A DNA stretch of 5,867 nucleotides from a virus: the UHGV virus genome UHGV-0285353. One strand, 5' to 3'. Below are positions 1,010 through 5,867 of this stretch, one piece after another. How positions within the stretch are numbered: position 1 is the first letter of the stretch; each line of letters starts with the position of its first letter. The position numbers and the translations under genes are program-made. Below the pieces are notes generated by a model that had not been told where the DNA came from, did not search any database, and saw only the letters and a program-made list of their open reading frames with translations.

Positions 1010-1255
1010 TTAGGTACGATTGAATGCTTGTTTTACATAGCCCCAAACGACCATAGTCGCTTGCGGTACGATCTTAGCTGCACCAATTACCCCAATTACT
1101 GCTACAGCACCCCCAATAACGGCAGTACCTGCTGAAACGTCTAATTCCGCAGCTAAAGCAGCGTTAGACAATGCAGCAGTACCTACAGCAAGAACTACCT
1201 TCTCAGAAGTAGTTAAAGGACGTTTAGCTTGTTGGTTTTGGTTTTTTTGTTCCAT
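1010..1255 (-). CDS. pVIII-like major coat protein precursor (81 aa; predicted mature form about 46 aa).
   Basis: RBS AAGGGG 7 nt upstream of the ATG. The N-region plus hydrophobic h-region ends in ALA/AE, an AxA cleavage site. The predicted mature protein AELDVSAGTAVIGGAVAVIGVIGAAKIVPQATMVVWGYVKQAFNRT has an acidic N-terminus, a hydrophobic core and a basic C-terminus, the same layout as M13 pVIII (AEGDDP...KKFTSKAS). Confidence 0.75.
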   Translation of the reverse strand: MEQKNQNQQAKRPLTTSEKVVLAVGTAALSNAALAAELDVSAGTAVIGGAVAVIGVIGAAKIVPQATMVVWGYVKQAFNRT

Positions 1256-1777: not shown

Positions 1778-1824
1778 TTTTGCCACCTATATGTTTATAC
1801 GGTTAATAAATCAGTACAATTAGT

Positions 1825-1872
1825 ATGTTGTCATGTTGTCATGTTGTCAATACAGCAAGTAATCATGTTGTT
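1825..1872. repeat. Tandem direct repeat (ATGTTGTC) x3 at 1825-1848 plus a degenerate fourth copy ATGTTGTT at 1865-1872, in the divergent intergenic region. Candidate operator or iteron.
   Basis: Exact 8-bp units are seen directly. On the minus strand the array reads GACAACAT x3 and contains a perfect TTGACA hexamer. It lies between the divergent starts at 1777 (minus) and 1913 (plus). Confidence 0.6.
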
Positions 1873-1912: not shown

Positions 1913-2101
1913 ATGATTTCCGCATATCTAAGGATTAACAAAAAAGAGGAAAAATCCCTCTTAGAATTATCAGAACAAGTTAATAAGCAGAGACTAGATT
2001 TAAAAATGGGCGTACTAAAAGAAAGTGAAATACTTCATCGACTTATCAATGAAGCATTCAAGAAGGCAAAAGCTGAAGATGGTGAAGTAAAAATTAAATA
2101 A
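1913..2101 (+). CDS. 62-aa basic/helical small protein on the opposite strand. Candidate DNA-binding regulator (RHH-like or repressor). Its 3' end overlaps the Rep 3' end convergently by 8 nt.
   Basis: It is the only plus-strand ORF not antisense to a convincing minus gene over most of its length. The protein is Lys/Glu-rich with predicted beta-strand, helix, helix segments (AYLRINK / EEKSLLELSEQ / ESEILHRLINEAFKK). The RBS is weak. The repeats lie immediately upstream. Confidence 0.4.
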   Translation: MISAYLRINKKEEKSLLELSEQVNKQRLDLKMGVLKESEILHRLINEAFKKAKAEDGEVKIK

Positions 2102-3308
2102 TCCCGCGATAAGTCATGAAATCAATTTCATGACTTTCCAATGTATCGATTTCTTTTTGTATTAATAAACTCAAATTATATTCAGCAGATCCAGAACCAA
2201 AGCAGCCATTTTTATAATCATCTTCAAGCCAAACCAAATATTCATGACGCTTCTGGTACTTCTTAAGAATATCAAAAACAATCTTTTCAACTTCAGTAAG
2301 CAGGATACTAGTTAACTCGGTTTCTTCAGCTAGTTCTTCATCTGACTTTTCAGCAATATCTAAATCAGCCTTAGCACCACGTGACCAAACTAACTGACGC
2401 TGACCTTTAAAGGTCAAAGCAAACTCTTGAAATAATTTTGAAGATAATTTTCCATGTATTTCAACATCTTCAACAGAAAGCTGAAGTAAATCAAATGCAG
2501 AAAAAGAATCGCCACGACCCTTTTTAATATGTCCCTTGGTTAATTCGTTCTCAATACCCCATTTCGAAACGTACTTATCTGCATAAGTACCATCTCTTAA
2601 ATCTAAACCATGCTCATTAGGCATTGGTAAACCAGATTTAACACAAGCAGCTTGCCATGCTCTTAATAGTTCACAAGTGAAAGTTGATTCAAGTTGAATG
2701 GATAAATCATTGTTTTCACAAAATAAAAGTATATGAAAATGAGGATGCCAACCATTAGAACCAAAAGTTACTTCAAAAGAACGAACCATGTGAACACGAC
2801 CCAAAAGAGCCAAAGTTTCACGACCTAAACGACCCTCAAAAAATCTTTTTAAGGCAGCACGCTGAGCATAAATCATGCCTTTTAAATATGTATCTGAAGA
2901 GTGCGGATTAGTAAGGGTTAATAGCCTAAGCACGCCACCTCTATTTTTCCATTCAGCACATGCTTTTTTTAATTCTTCTCTACGTTTTTCAGTAACTTGC
3001 TTTGCACAGACAGGACATGACCAGATAGAACCGCAACGCTGAACGTTAGCCCAATGAGCCTTTTGGCGTTCTTCATTGAACATAACAGAGCGTTTCTTTT
3101 CTTTATCGATACGTTTCTTTAAACAGTTAGTTACTCTTTCAGTAGGTAATAATTTAGATGCCTGATCCTGAAGAATATAATCGTGAAGTCTCTCAAACCC
3201 TTTGTTTTCAAGCTTGGCATGAGATTTCGTAAATATACCAAGGGCGGATTTTTTTTGACTTAATCCTAGATCCATATGATAATAGTCCCGTGTGTTAGCA
3301 GTACACAA
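2094..3308 (-). CDS. Rolling-circle replication initiator (HUH endonuclease superfamily Rep, functionally pII/RstA-equivalent). The true start is probably the ATG at 3275 (393 aa) rather than the TTG at 3308.
   Basis: Three RCR motifs in the canonical order: motif I VLRLLTLTNP, motif II GWHPHFHILLF (His-hydrophobic-His), motif III YADKYVSKWG (two-tyrosine Y-x-x-K-Y). An upstream Cys cluster CGSIWSCPVCA follows a zinc-ribbon pattern. The ORF is 404 aa and in the same orientation as the structural genes. Confidence 0.9.
   Translation of the reverse strand: MCTANTRDYYHMDLGLSQKKSALGIFTKSHAKLENKGFERLHDYILQDQASKLLPTERVTNCLKKRIDKEKKRSVMFNEERQKAHWANVQRCGSIWSCPVCAKQVTEKRREELKKACAEWKNRGGVLRLLTLTNPHSSDTYLKGMIYAQRAALKRFFEGRLGRETLALLGRVHMVRSFEVTFGSNGWHPHFHILLFCENNDLSIQLESTFTCELLRAWQAACVKSGLPMPNEHGLDLRDGTYADKYVSKWGIENELTKGHIKKGRGDSFSAFDLLQLSVEDVEIHGKLSSKLFQEFALTFKGQRQLVWSRGAKADLDIAEKSDEELAEETELTSILLTEVEKIVFDILKKYQKRHEYLVWLEDDYKNGCFGSGSAEYNLSLLIQKEIDTLESHEIDFMTYRGII
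2111..2136. repeat. Perfect 11-bp inverted repeat hairpin (AAGTCATGAAA tcaa TTTCATGACTT) inside the last codons of Rep, just past the stop of the convergent 62-aa ORF.
   Basis: Seen directly. The position suggests either a bidirectional terminator for the convergent transcripts or an origin/structural element. Confidence 0.5.
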
Positions 3309-3314
3309 AGTTTC

Positions 3315-3346
3315 AAAAAAGGACCGTCGGCAAACGGTCCTTTTTT
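3315..3346. terminator. Bidirectional rho-independent terminator between the RHH gene and Rep.
   Basis: AAAAAA GGACCGT cggcaa ACGGTCC TTTTTT. A 7-bp GC-rich stem is flanked by an A6 run and a T6 run, so either strand gives a hairpin plus U-run. It sits 12 nt past the RHH stop. Confidence 0.7.
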
Positions 3347-3358
3347 CTTCCCCAAATT

Positions 3359-3556
3359 TTAAGTGTTGTCTTTTTGTCTTGTTGTCATATTAGCATTTTT
3401 AGAATTATTAAATAAATCCTGCTGTGAGAAGCGCTTCACATAATCACGCATATATTTTCTTAATTCTTGAGATGCTGTTGAATCCTGTGATTTACAACAA
3501 GAAATAAAAGCTTCTTTCAATTCCTGATCAACTCGAATTGGTAGATTAGATAGCAT
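3359..3556 (-). CDS. 65-aa ribbon-helix-helix (CopG/Arc/MetJ-like) DNA-binding protein, a candidate autorepressor or early regulator. The 85-aa ORF in the track is shortened here to the internal ATG.
   Basis: GGAG RBS 8 nt upstream of ATG 3556..3554. The sequence MLSNLPIRVDQELKEAFISCCKSQDSTASQELRKYMRDYV fits beta-strand, helix A, S-x-S turn, helix B as in Arc/CopG (compare GRSVNSEIYQRVMESF). Palindromic operators lie immediately upstream. Confidence 0.6.
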   Translation of the reverse strand: MLSNLPIRVDQELKEAFISCCKSQDSTASQELRKYMRDYVKRFSQQDLFNNSKNANMTTRQKDNT

Positions 3557-3572
3557 AATGGTGACTCCTATT

Positions 3573-3611
3573 TGTATATACACAGTATATACACAATAAA
3601 TAGGATGTAAA
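3573..3611 (-). promoter_or_regulatory. Candidate sigma70-type promoter for the RHH gene, overlapped by two palindromic operator sites (TGTATATACA at 3573-3582; GTATATAC at 3585-3592) whose centres are 11 bp apart.
   Basis: On the minus strand: -35 TTTACA (plus strand 3606-3611), a 16-bp spacer, -10 TATACT (plus strand 3584-3589). The palindromes are read directly and cover the -10 and the predicted start site, a classic autoregulatory RHH arrangement. Confidence 0.5.
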
Positions 3612-3625
3612 TACATTATTTGATT

Positions 3626-3817
3626 TTAATCATTATCCCAATGTTTATGTCCATGTGCCTTCCCCCTTCCTTCTTCGCCTCGTCCTCGTCCCTCGTCCTC
3701 GTTGTCGTCGTCAGGTAAAGGCACTAAATCAAGCATAGCGCTTCGAGTGTAATAAAAACTTAAAGCTATAAAAAATAAAGTAAAAAATATAAGACCAAAA
3801 ATCTGCCAAAAAGACAT
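3626..3817 (-). CDS. 63-aa predicted single-pass membrane protein with a low-complexity acidic/Gly-Arg/His tail. First ORF after the intergenic region. Function unknown.
   Basis: N-terminal hydrophobic helix FWQIFGLIFFTLFFIALSFYY. The tail DDDNEDEGRGRGEEGRGKAHGHKHWDND is encoded by a GC-rich polypurine tract that is atypical for this genome. GGGGG lies 4 nt upstream of the ATG. A T-rich or low-complexity artefact cannot be excluded. Confidence 0.4.
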   Translation of the reverse strand: MSFWQIFGLIFFTLFFIALSFYYTRSAMLDLVPLPDDDNEDEGRGRGEEGRGKAHGHKHWDND

Positions 3818-3834
3818 AATACCCCCGAGTCAAA

Positions 3835-3921
3835 GTGTCTAGACTACGCCTTGAGACACTCAAAAAACACGTTAAATCAATTTTTATACACGGTGTGTCT
3901 CAATTCCCCTGAAGACACTTC
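3835..3921. promoter_or_regulatory. Intergenic region between pI/Zot and the early genes carrying alternating GTGTCT/AGACAC motifs and inverted repeats. Candidate origin, packaging signal or early promoter region.
   Basis: GTCTAGAC palindrome (3837-3844). The 9-bp inverted repeat TTGAGACAC (3851-3859) / GTGTCTCAA (3895-3903). Imperfect palindromes TTGAGacaCTCAA (3851-3863) and GAAGacaCTTC (3911-3921). The hexamer AGACAC or its complement occurs four times within about 85 bp. Confidence 0.4.
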
Positions 3922-3977
3922 TCTGTTAATTCCACGTTACATCAAATAGACGGTTTTTGTAATCAAAGAGAAGAAAT

Positions 3978-5153
3978 TTAAATTAAGCCTTGAGCTTTGG
4001 CAGACTGATATTTAGCAATAAATTCAGCATCATATTCTTGAGTCTGGGGCTGGTTAGTGAATTGCTGTACTTGCTGAGGTTGATTACTAAAACCCTGAGC
4101 TTGCTGCTTAAAATAGTTATATGGACGGTCATTGTTTTCAATTAGTTTTCTACAGTCTGATTGACTTACATCACGCAAAATTGTTCCCTGCTCAGTGTAT
4201 GCAACATATCGGGAACCCTTCTTCATACAACCAGAAAACACAGGCTTTGACGTAATCTCATAGCTAATTTGACTAGTATCAACATCATAAGGCTTATTTG
4301 GATTGTACTTAACAGAAATAGACTGCATGTCATTCTGTGTTTTCATTAGGTTTTCCTGATCTCTCTTAGCTTTGTATTCAGGGTCTAAACCTTCCTTACA
4401 CATCTCAGCAGACCAACCGAGTTGTTTTACACATTCATCTACCTTCTTTTGCAACGGATCGGCAGCTTTAGGAATCTCTGCTTTAATTGTTTTAGGCTCT
4501 TCTTTTTGCGAATCTTGTTGCTTTATATAGAAATAGCCAAATGCACCTATTGCAAGAATTAGCATCCAAATCCCTTGTACCATTTTTGCAGGCAATTTAA
4601 TTTTGCCATGAGTATCAGCACCACCTTTTGACGAGGTATACATGCTGAATAAATGTTTTGGGTACGTGAATGTACCAGTATCTTCTGCATCTGCTTTTAC
4701 TGACTTAGTATTCGGGTTCAACTGGTGATACTTCCATAACCACCAAGTTGCCATTTTCATACCCATTGGACGATGCAAGTGATAATGCATCCCAACCATG
4801 TCTAAAACGTCTGCATTCAACAAACGTGGGGCTTGAGTAATGAAAATAATATCCAAGAACTCAGCATGTCTATGCGTCTGTAAAAACTCTACTTCTGGAT
4901 GGTTTTCATTCTTAACCGGATGCTTATATTTTTTTGAAAAGTGGCTGATCTTTTGAGCTTCATCAATCACAACTAAAGATCGTGCCGGATAGTCTTCAAA
5001 ACTAGACTTTAAAGGTTGTGCAGTGTCTAGTTTTAACCCTTCAATATTTGAGAATATATTCCAAGGCTCTGCCTCATTTGCACGTGCAAATATCTCTTTG
5101 ACAGCCCATAAAGTTTTCCCCGAGCCAGGCGTGGCAGTAATTAAATAAATCAT
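3978..5153 (-). CDS. zot: pI/Zot-like filamentous phage assembly ATPase (391 aa).
   Basis: N-terminal Walker A TATPGSGKT and Walker B LVVIDEAQ. A central TM helix GIWMLILAIGAFGYFYI is followed by a C-terminal domain with Cys residues and a Q-rich tail. The AGGA RBS overlaps the upstream stop. Position is after pVI, as in Ff/CTX-phi. Confidence 0.9.
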   Translation of the reverse strand: MIYLITATPGSGKTLWAVKEIFARANEAEPWNIFSNIEGLKLDTAQPLKSSFEDYPARSLVVIDEAQKISHFSKKYKHPVKNENHPEVEFLQTHRHAEFLDIIFITQAPRLLNADVLDMVGMHYHLHRPMGMKMATWWLWKYHQLNPNTKSVKADAEDTGTFTYPKHLFSMYTSSKGGADTHGKIKLPAKMVQGIWMLILAIGAFGYFYIKQQDSQKEEPKTIKAEIPKAADPLQKKVDECVKQLGWSAEMCKEGLDPEYKAKRDQENLMKTQNDMQSISVKYNPNKPYDVDTSQISYEITSKPVFSGCMKKGSRYVAYTEQGTILRDVSQSDCRKLIENNDRPYNYFKQQAQGFSNQPQQVQQFTNQPQTQEYDAEFIAKYQSAKAQGLI

Positions 5154-5164
5154 TATTTTTTATC

Positions 5165-5440
5165 CTAATTCTTCGAAAGTGCAAGTGAAGAACTTGCAAT
5201 AATTGCTCTAGCAATAAATGCCGAAAAAATAATTGAAACGCATTTATCTAGACCAGCTACCCCAACAAGACCAGCTAGATTTCCGACCGCAAAAAAGTCA
5301 GACATAAAGCGATCTAATAAATAATTTACGACCGTTAAAACAATCGTAGAAGACACCAGAGAAATTCCCGCACCTGCTAGTAAACGTCTAAGAAAACCCG
5401 AAGCAAGAATTTCACCTATAAACTTGAATAAATTACCCAC
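5165..5440 (-). CDS. pVI-like minor coat protein (91 aa, GTG start).
   Basis: AGGAG RBS 9 nt upstream of GTG 5440..5438. The protein is highly hydrophobic and multi-TM. The start overlaps the pIII stop, and the gene lies between pIII and pI as in Ff phages. Confidence 0.6.
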   Translation of the reverse strand: MGNLFKFIGEILASGFLRRLLAGAGISLVSSTIVLTVVNYLLDRFMSDFFAVGNLAGLVGVAGLDKCVSIIFSAFIARAIIASSSLALSKN

Positions 5441-5867
5441 CTTTAGCTGCTCCTATAACGATATAAGCTGCATAGATGTACGAACATGCAATCAATGCAG
5501 GTTTAGCCAATTCAAGGATTGAGCAGACAGGTTGAAGGCTTAAAGAAAATGATGTTGTAACACCAAGCACACTAATGGTTTGAGGCTCAGGCGTAGGACA
5601 TTTATCGTCTACAGAAAATCTATTTGCATTGAATACAGAGAAATCAAAAGTACGTTTATCTTCCGTATCAATCTTTGTTTCATCTGCTGTGTAAGGCTTG
5701 GTTTCTCTATTAAGCCAGTCATCCCACTTCTGGAACTTCTCAACGAATAACTTAGGGAAATTAATTGCAGCATTCGCAGCTTGACAGACAGTCGGTGCCC
5801 ACTCACAGAACACTGGAAAGTTAATTGTTATGTCAGTCGGTGGCGCTTTAGGTGCTGTAGGATCATC
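5433..5867 (-). CDS. pIII-like adsorption protein, C-terminal 144 codons. The ORF continues beyond the window end, so the 5433..5813 track ORF is only the GTG-anchored tail of a longer frame.
   Basis: The frame is open from base 5867 to stop 5435..5433. It contains a Pro-rich linker DDPTAPKAPPTD, a Cys-containing domain, and a C-terminal membrane anchor LIACSYIYAAYIVIGAAKGG typical of pIII. It is in the same frame as the 1..885 fragment if the sequence is circular. Confidence 0.6.
   Translation of the reverse strand, partial: DDPTAPKAPPTDITINFPVFCEWAPTVCQAANAAINFPKLFVEKFQKWDDWLNRETKPYTADETKIDTEDKRTFDFSVFNANRFSVDDKCPTPEPQTISVLGVTTSFSLSLQPVCSILELAKPALIACSYIYAAYIVIGAAKGG

Follow-up and report, generated by a model that had tools for sequence, protein, structure and literature searches.

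A small gene encoding a ribbon-helix-helix (RHH) protein of 65 aa lies directly upstream of the replication gene rep in the virus genome UHGV-0285353. We propose that this region acts as a plasmid-like copy control of an apparently episomal filamentous phage, in which the RHH repressor would operate together with a predicted countertranscript RNA (ctRNA) complementary to the rep leader. Judging from sequence comparisons, we give this reading a probability of roughly 0.6. The 5867 bp analyzed here, referred to as the window, represent the nearly complete genome of an Acinetobacter filamentous phage (inovirus) of ~6 kb, and all of its major genes are located on the minus strand.

In the mechanism that we envisage, a sigma-70-type promoter (3611-3584, minus strand) would transcribe the RHH gene, and RHH dimers lined up next to each other on the same face of the helix, along an array with 11-bp spacing that extends from the -35 to +1, would shut this same promoter, as comparative footprinting suggests. 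Most of the RHH transcripts would end at a terminator and rep would receive only read-through, so that autorepression by the RHH protein would also cap rep transcription. A constitutive promoter on the plus strand, inside the first seven codons of rep and conserved in ~15 lineages, would produce a ctRNA of ~57 nt, which may pair with the rep leader beside a weak ribosome-binding site and lower Rep translation. The TGACAAC iterons found in the same region would be bound by a different factor, either Rep or the product of a small open reading frame (ORF) named ORF62. The RHH cassette would thus form an optional outer layer, and the ctRNA, the hairpin and the iterons a conserved inner one.

The RHH gene and its predicted operator array

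The elements of the RHH gene and its control region are the following.

3556 (ATG) to 3361-3359 (TAA), minus strand: repressor gene of the RHH_9 family, 65 aa, assigned by Pfam, PHROG and homologues
3565-3569, minus strand: Shine-Dalgarno sequence AGGAG, 8 nt before the ATG at 3556; TAGGAG is kept in L002, L008, L018 and PMBT54
3584-3611, minus strand: predicted sigma-70 promoter of the RHH gene, with -35 TTTACA (3611-3606), a 16-nt spacer and -10 TATACT (3589-3584)
3574-3581: predicted operator unit O1, a perfect GTATATAC palindrome that covers the presumed start of transcription and is invariant in a six-phage alignment
3585-3592: predicted operator unit O2, again a perfect GTATATAC palindrome, which overlaps the -10 hexamer and has its centre 11 bp from that of O1
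3596-3603: degenerate unit ATAAATAG (5/8), in the same 11-bp register
3607-3614: degenerate unit GTAAATAC (7/8), in the same 11-bp register, over the -35

The first-pass annotation, made from the letters of the window, had described a 65-aa RHH protein with a strong ribosome-binding site, and this description holds: besides the AGGAG, the protein matches Pfam RHH_9 (PF19839) with 25.2 bits (gathering cut-off 23.4; E=1.5e-5) and phrog_19878 over its full length (E=1.5e-40). A profile of the family compared with the PDB retrieved the RHH cores of DinJ (9lew, E=0.006) and SvtR (2kel, E=0.3), tblastn matched the protein to the RHH antitoxin YacA, and the homologue from the Pseudomonas phage PMBT54 scores 28.5 bits against RHH_9. 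No match to Pfam RHH_1 was found for the protein of the window, nor to Rep_2 for its Rep. The alignments place a beta strand at residues ~5-10 and helices at 11-22 and from 28 onward. The AlphaFold monomer shows helices at 11-22 and 28-53 and an extended N-terminus in which no strand was called (predicted local distance difference test, pLDDT, 63); Foldseek returned no PDB match below E=4 for this model, in which the ribbon cannot form because it is a monomer. An alternative ORF of 85 aa starts at the ATG at 3616; Met21 of this longer version is where the Pfam and PHROG alignments and all homologues begin, and the predicted RHH promoter falls within its N-terminal extension. The family is rare in phages (5 clusters among 5.8 billion proteins). 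A tblastn search of 50,697 phage records gave no match, and the homologues used here were found in the protein collection, on plasmids and by contig scans.

The perfect palindrome GTATATAC occurs just twice in the 5867 bp, against 0.07 copies expected, and none of 200 shuffled sequences reached at least two. Both copies had been noticed in the first-pass annotation, 11 bp apart over the -10 and the start, and each element lies within 1 nt of where it had been placed. The two degenerate units are new, and with them the array reaches over the -35. Palindromes of 8 bp one helical turn apart are the geometry expected of RHH dimers bound side by side, such as those of Arc, MetJ and CopG. In Arc and Mnt (P22), MetJ and omega (pSM19035), the dimers place a beta ribbon in the major groove, and binding is cooperative between adjacent sites spaced by roughly one helical turn; apart from the fold, these proteins have no sequence relation to the one described here, and operator sequence and number of units differ. 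The promoter itself scores 10/12 in a consensus scan, which makes it the joint-best site of the minus strand, tied with 1850-1822. Promoter-like sites are not enriched in the window (12 found vs 17 expected) and therefore the call depends on position and conservation. The arrangement TTTACA-16-TATACT is shared by L002 and PMBT54, and L009 has TTGAAT-16-TATACT.

The operator assignment has its strongest evidence in the comparison with other genomes. The GTATATAC motif with its 11-bp spacing precedes all phage homologues of the gene (the window, L002, L018, L008, L009, L130 and PMBT54), although the flanking sequences diverge. In the relatives of the window the units are arranged as follows.

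L002 and L018: two operator units
L008: ATATATAT-CCT-GTATATAC
L009: three units, GTCTATAC, GTATATTG and GTATATAC
L130: GTATATAC-TGT-TTGTATAC
PMBT54: GTAAATAT-TAG-GTATATAC, within an identical TTTACA-16-TATACT promoter

Homologues with 45-58% identity, found on small plasmids of Acinetobacter and Psychrobacter and on one Methylovulum contig, have three to four octamers with a TATATA core, spaced by exactly 11 bp and abutting the start codons. More distant members of RHH_9 show another inverted repeat, GTGTTAC...GTAACAC, as expected if the operator co-evolves with the protein. The autoregulation put forward in the first-pass annotation gains from this co-occurrence of the family and 11-bp-spaced arrays in phages and plasmids: predicted autorepression of the RHH gene through the palindrome array is well supported, because the homologues share TATATA-core arrays of the same spacing before their start codons.

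Two other roles for an RHH protein deserve attention at this point. If the protein served in centromere binding or plasmid maintenance in the manner of omega/ParG, the arrayed sites could be a partition site; the PMBT54 homologue has weak Pfam matches to ParG and RHH_1 and is recorded as omega-like. Nevertheless, the window has no gene for an ATPase of the ParA/ParM type, the array sits exactly over a promoter, and a multicopy replicative form scarcely needs partition, all of which makes this role very improbable. The protein could also be a type II antitoxin paired with ORF63, the small ORF that precedes it, or with another neighbor, a layout of which the first-pass annotation had been reminded. 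Its 40 N-terminal residues resemble YacA and the DinJ/RelB antitoxins, and the homologue from a Psychrobacter plasmid is followed, 4 nt on, by an ORF of 100 aa. However, the similarity is limited to a generic DNA-binding domain (NCBIfam RelB/DinJ 16.5 vs a cut-off of 96). ORF63 is a predicted membrane peptide without a toxin domain; L002, L009 and L090 have unrelated ORFs in its place, even though the RHH protein of L090 is identical to that of the window. Moreover, the RHH promoter lies between ORF63 and the RHH gene, and no toxin gene follows, only the terminator and rep. An antitoxin is for these reasons the most far-fetched of the roles considered.

The rep leader and the predicted antisense RNA

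Between the RHH gene and rep, and across the start of rep, we recognized the following elements.

2094-3275, minus strand: rep, a 393-aa Rep_1 (pC194/pUB110-type) rolling-circle initiator (Pfam Rep_1 37.7 bits vs a cut-off of 33.2), the proposed regulated target
3315-3346, both strands: bidirectional intrinsic terminator, with A6 (3315-3320), the stem GGACCGT (3321-3327)/ACGGTCC (3334-3340), a 6-nt loop and T6 (3341-3346)
3364-3387, minus strand: three 8-bp iterons (TGACAACA AGACAAAA AGACAACA), between the RHH core and the terminator
3255-3283, plus strand: predicted antisense promoter TTGACT-17-GATAAT (10/12), with the -35 at 3255-3260 and the -10 at 3278-3283, overlapping the rep start
3290-3346, plus strand: predicted ctRNA of ~57 nt, with inferred ends, complementary to the rep mRNA leader
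3291-3307, plus strand: SL1 stem-loop of the predicted ctRNA, UGUGU/UAGCAGU/ACACA, with a YUNR-type loop; its complement is in the rep leader

The terminator starts 12 nt past the RHH stop codon and is followed by rep, as the first-pass annotation had it, and the hairpin with its A6/T6 flanks is worth about -20 kcal/mol in both directions (sense RNA, -19.8 kcal/mol, z=-3.1; within the antisense RNA, -21.1 kcal/mol, z=-4.6). The idea that it insulates rep fares less well. No promoter was detected between the terminator and the rep ATG by the consensus scan, so that rep transcription would have to read through the hairpin from upstream, and the RHH promoter is the only good promoter upstream of rep in the window. 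A leaderless rep promoter, TTGTGT-18-TATTAT, was considered and discarded, being neither conserved nor accepted by the scan. The hairpin may then be an attenuator of rep transcription, not an insulator. It persists across lineages although the stems are completely different and unrelated to each other (GGACCGU, GCCCAUUU, ACAGCG, CCCC). Despite these differing stems, the loop at 3328-3333 keeps its sequence (CGGCAA on the antisense RNA; consensus CGSCAA), which hints that the loop itself may be recognized by a protein or through a kissing contact between RNAs.

The iterons are a second, predicted binding site of a non-RHH nature: the GTATATAC motif tracks the RHH gene, and TGACAAC tracks ORF62 and this clade of Rep. 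ORF62 and Rep itself are the candidate binders. We also considered the iterons as a rep promoter in the window (ATGACA-17-CACTTA), which has the register of a promoter but fails the -10 criteria; in L135, which lacks the RHH gene, the equivalent site is a 10/12 promoter. The C-terminal tail of the RHH protein (residues ~52-65, ~14 residues, ...NMTTRQKDNT) is translated from the iteron DNA and is missing in relatives. In L008, L009 and L130 a stop codon precedes the iterons (...KK*TAACATGACAAC), and the tail is probably an incidental read-through into a DNA element.

The antisense promoter is the top or joint-top match in each region scanned, with 10-11 of 12 consensus positions. Its -10 sits 2 nt from the rep ATG and its -35 is the reverse complement of rep codons 6-7. 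This promoter and an antisense-strand terminator recur in ~15 lineages of Rep_1 inoviruses, seven of which were covered by the detailed comparison. Examples of the promoter in relatives are given below.

L099: TTGACA-17-GATAAT, 11/12
L098: TTGACA-16-TAAAAT, 11/12
L009: TTGACT-17-GATAAT, 10/12
L135: TTGACT-16-TATAAT, 11/12
L130: TTGACT-16-TATAAT, 11/12

Over the seven lineages, mean pairwise identity was 0.92 for the -35 and 0.86 for the -10, but only 0.45 for the first 11 positions of the spacer. The constraint on rep codons 6-7 appears to act on the DNA rather than on the protein, because the N-termini of Rep vary freely (MDLGLSQ, MIIEECQ, MNINSCQ, MKNYSSQ, MNAAVSQ, MQTKSSQ) except for these two codons, which alone are fixed, being always AGT or TGT followed by CAA. 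An alignment of the ctRNAs with MAFFT misaligned the unrelated terminator stems, and the sequences were therefore folded singly; the seven predicted ctRNAs have in common the shape of a stem-loop followed by a terminator. In L098, the stem of SL1 carries a compensatory change from T-A to A-T. In PMBT54 and L101, the T-run after the hairpin is present on the antisense strand only, and the most widely conserved property of the hairpin appears to be the ending of the antisense transcript. Even in L112-L115, L117 and L124, with 26-30% identity in Rep, an antisense promoter overlaps the rep start and a strong antisense-strand terminator or T-run is found 74-81 nt upstream of the rep ATG, as confirmed computationally for L112 and L115. 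Rfam gave no relevant match in the window at E<=1, the sole match being a chance scaRNA located elsewhere (E=0.41).

A second antisense promoter-like site, TTTAGA-17-TATAAT (10/12), is found inside rep at 3153-3181 on the plus strand and also in L009 (5343-5315). It would yield an antisense RNA of ~190 nt over the rep start, ending at the same terminator. The site lies within a conserved coding stretch, HDYILQDQASKL, and its conservation may reflect protein constraint.

The same hairpins and iterons might instead be DNA elements of the plus-strand origin, the iterons being bound by Rep, SL1 being the nick hairpin and the antisense RNA being incidental. The SL1 loop CTGCTA is conserved while its stem has a compensatory change, the iterons co-occur with this clade of Rep, and in pUB110 the double-strand origin (dso) abuts the repU promoter, where RepU coats the dso and silences that promoter (PMC5703833). 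However, a search for the pC194-type nick motif (TCTTGATA) performed no better than chance and the origin was not located, and the loop of SL1 varies (ACTGCTA vs ACGGTAA) between lineages with similar Reps. Such an origin would also leave unexplained why the spacer varies between conserved -35 and -10 hexamers, why codons 6-7 are invariant and why the T-runs of PMBT54 and L101 are antisense-only. We consider it unlikely that the origin accounts for the region in place of RNA control, although the two are not mutually exclusive.

If the predicted ctRNA exists, it may extend well beyond the window. We see about even odds that a large clade of Rep_1 filamentous phages, including those of Acinetobacter and Pseudomonas and many metagenomic lineages, carries an undescribed ctRNA of ~55-85 nt, with a promoter in the first rep codons, a terminator in the rep leader and interchangeable repressor cassettes upstream.

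An optional repressor cassette in an apparently episomal phage

All phage homologues of the RHH gene, including that of PMBT54, directly precede a Rep_1 rep and share its orientation. The reverse does not hold. L098, L099 and L131, with Reps 58-72% identical, keep the whole block downstream of the RHH gene and also ORF62 but have no RHH gene, and L133 and L135-137 show the same arrangement of block and ORF62 as L098, again without it. The RHH slot of these relatives is occupied by unrelated ORFs or by nothing, and L099 retains just the last ~30 nt of the gene. In 23 more distant Rep relatives, the family hidden Markov model found no match among the ORFs upstream of rep, showing that the RHH protein is not a universal partner of this Rep; likewise, Pfam gave no match for the alternative upstream cassettes of L098, L099, L133, L135 and L136. 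Since close relatives keep the downstream block and ORF62 without it, the RHH cassette appears to be dispensable and exchangeable and not a master switch.

Small ORFs are also found upstream of rep in the distant Rep_1 inoviruses L112 (1674-1937), L115 (1613-1894) and L093 (5515-5820). Their N-termini resemble an RHH in pattern (for example, MLIKINNSTEEFSEQVERLKVRF...) and lead into a coiled coil; they have no Pfam match and may be analogous repressor cassettes. In the metagenomic L008, an ORF of 131 aa with a P-loop is inserted between the RHH gene and rep (L008 2594-3122). A hypervariable slot also lies between Zot and the RHH gene: ORF63 of the window has a transmembrane helix and an acidic/Gly-Arg tail, and the unrelated ORFs found in its place in L002, L009 and L090 (75+46, 89 or 70 aa) may stand even beside an identical RHH gene.

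Carriers of the RHH gene are contigs of 5-10 kb or shorter, and none exceeds 10 kb (>80 collection blocks), which suggests that the phage is an episome. An integrase is absent. An RHH protein identical to that of the window is present in A. baumannii assemblies, on contigs of 5.9-6.05 kb. It is only recently that filamentous phages have been described in A. baumannii, as plasmid-like circles of ~6 kb in clinical isolates (PMC11209303, PMC12285184), and zot-positive contigs of this species have been described as plasmid-like (PMC12285184).

The first-pass annotation had read the module as a lysogeny switch resembling RstR or the Pf repressor C. Under such a reading, the RHH protein would be the master lysogeny or immunity repressor, silencing rep and holding the phage in a quiescent state. 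It has in its favor a repressor directly upstream of rep, an operator array covering the only good promoter that faces rep, and a strong terminator separating the two genes. Nevertheless, the size of the carrier contigs and the missing integrase speak against it, as do the orientation of the RHH gene, which is co-directional with rep and not divergent from it, and the relatives L098, L099, L131, L133 and L135-137, which have no RHH gene although rep, the hairpins, the iterons and ORF62 are all in place. Additionally, ORF62, with its iteron-filled divergent promoters (1767-1850), is a far more widely conserved candidate for a regulator. RstR of CTXphi and repressor C of Pf4 are also small repressors that limit expression of a replication gene of filamentous phages, but they are helix-turn-helix proteins, divergent from that gene and found in integrated prophages, whereas here we have an RHH protein, co-directional with rep, in an apparently non-integrating phage. 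We regard a lysogeny switch as improbable.

Plasmid-like copy control, the reading that we favor, finds its closest parallel in pMV158. In this plasmid, the RHH protein CopG acts with RNAII, an RNA of 48 nt encoded in the copG-repB intergenic region and ending at an intrinsic terminator (PMC4485353). The likeness includes a small RHH gene directly upstream of rep and co-directional with it, an operator that overlaps its own promoter, and a countertranscript of ~50 nt in the cop-rep interval, with its own promoter (here a predicted one) and an intrinsic terminator, complementary to the leader just before atypical rep translation signals (PMC4485353). On the other hand, Rep is here of the Rep_1 and not the Rep_2 type, and the repressor belongs to RHH_9 instead of CopG/RHH_1 and has no detectable sequence relation to CopG. 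The operator is a series of 8-bp palindromes with 11-bp periodicity, in contrast to the 13-bp pseudosymmetric element of pMV158, and there is an extra iteron site. The hairpin of the Acinetobacter clade also has a T-run on the sense strand, which makes cop-rep cotranscription uncertain, and the replicon is a filamentous phage. By analogy, the module would work like that of pMV158 without being a member of its replicon family.

Among phages, ORF13 of PMBT54, described as similar to an omega transcriptional repressor, is a true homologue (family profile E=5e-19) located upstream of a Rep_1 rep, with a TTTACA-16-TATACT promoter and GTATATAC over the -10. PMBT54 differs in having one perfect palindrome only, a terminator T-run restricted to the antisense strand, iterons of another sequence in the structural operon (TCGTGTTN x4) and an antisense ORF2 unrelated to ORF62. 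Its authors suggested a copy-number role for the RHH homologue of this episomal phage (PMC10534721). The Rep_1 plasmids pC194 and pUB110 have the same Rep family, and countertranscripts across the Rep translation-initiation region were predicted for them too (PMC5703833); these plasmids are without an RHH co-repressor, and RepU silences its own promoter from the adjacent dso.

Several points weigh against copy control as proposed here. Its promoters and terminators are consensus matches only, and the RHH monomer model is of only moderate confidence and gave no fold match. The good T6 on the sense strand means that termination could be near-complete, which would put the source of rep mRNA in question. 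The antisense -35 lies in coding sequence and may be under protein constraint, yet it is not covered by any conserved protein motif. The misaligned terminator stems precluded a formal covariation statistic. The RHH gene is missing in close relatives and hence is not essential for control, and the conserved SL1 and iterons could equally be origin elements at the DNA level.

If our reading is right, episomal copy number, and perhaps incompatibility or superinfection exclusion among relatives, would be set as in rolling-circle plasmids and not by a lysogeny repressor. This would explain stable carriage without integration and would predict incompatibility groups among these phages, and mutations in the operator or the ctRNA would provide handles to raise or cure the phage load. 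No new principle is involved, since pMV158 and other rolling-circle plasmids follow the same logic. What the data offer is a testable circuit, with operator coordinates, a predicted antisense RNA and a terminator in the rep leader, of which the antisense layer may be common to many Rep_1 inoviruses.

ORF62 and the remaining genome

The other genes and ORFs mentioned above are located as follows.

3978-5153, minus strand: Zot/pI
3626-3817, minus strand: ORF63, a small variable ORF
1913-2101, plus strand: ORF62, 62 aa, convergent with rep, with an 8-nt overlap at the 3' end of rep
1010-1255, minus strand: major coat gene

Further genes of the minus strand encode an ssb-like protein, an adsorption protein and a DUF2523 protein.

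ORF62 has 82 clusters of homologues, all on inovirus contigs of ~6-8 kb, with an invariant N-terminus, MISAYLRIN. Its AlphaFold model (pLDDT 94) has two helices and a C-terminal beta hairpin. We considered ORF62 as a second RHH protein and rejected the idea, since Pfam, a PDB profile search, hhalign against the RHH family and Foldseek all gave no support. Because it co-occurs with the TGACAAC iterons, ORF62 is a candidate iteron-binding regulator, without a known fold match.

The ssb/structural operon has a predicted promoter, TTGACA-17-CATACT (1822-1850, minus strand; -35 at 1850-1845, -10 at 1827-1822), whose spacer is filled by three perfect 8-bp iterons (TGACAACA x3, 1826-1849). A promoter-like site on the plus strand, TTTACA-17-TATGTT (1767-1795), faces this promoter and leads to ORF62. 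The whole arrangement (1767-1850) is kept in all relatives with ORF62 (L002, L008, L009, L012, L098 and L099) and looks like the main regulatory node of the phage. In L008, two TGACAAC iterons (L008 1238-1253) also precede a secretin gene.

The largest non-coding stretch of the window, between Zot and ORF63 (3818-3977), contains nested inverted repeats, TTGAGACAC/GTGTCTCAA (3851-3859/3895-3903) and AGTGTCT/AGACACT (3834-3840/3854-3860), and is a candidate packaging signal or origin.

The closest deposited phage, Acinetobacter phage M02 (L001, OQ693633), matches the window only in part of the structural module (90.6% identity over 16% of the window), and the two Reps are unrelated. In M02 (3536-5584), a Rep of 406 aa is accompanied by a divergent, unannotated ORF of 64 aa (4047-4241, minus strand) with a weak relation to ORF62 (E=3e-4). 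This points to an exchange of replication and regulation modules among Acinetobacter inoviruses.

Two further hairpins resemble terminators. One, at 975-994, is a second bidirectional one and follows the major coat gene; the other (1962-1944, minus strand), with a T-run, is located inside ORF62 and could end the rep transcript.

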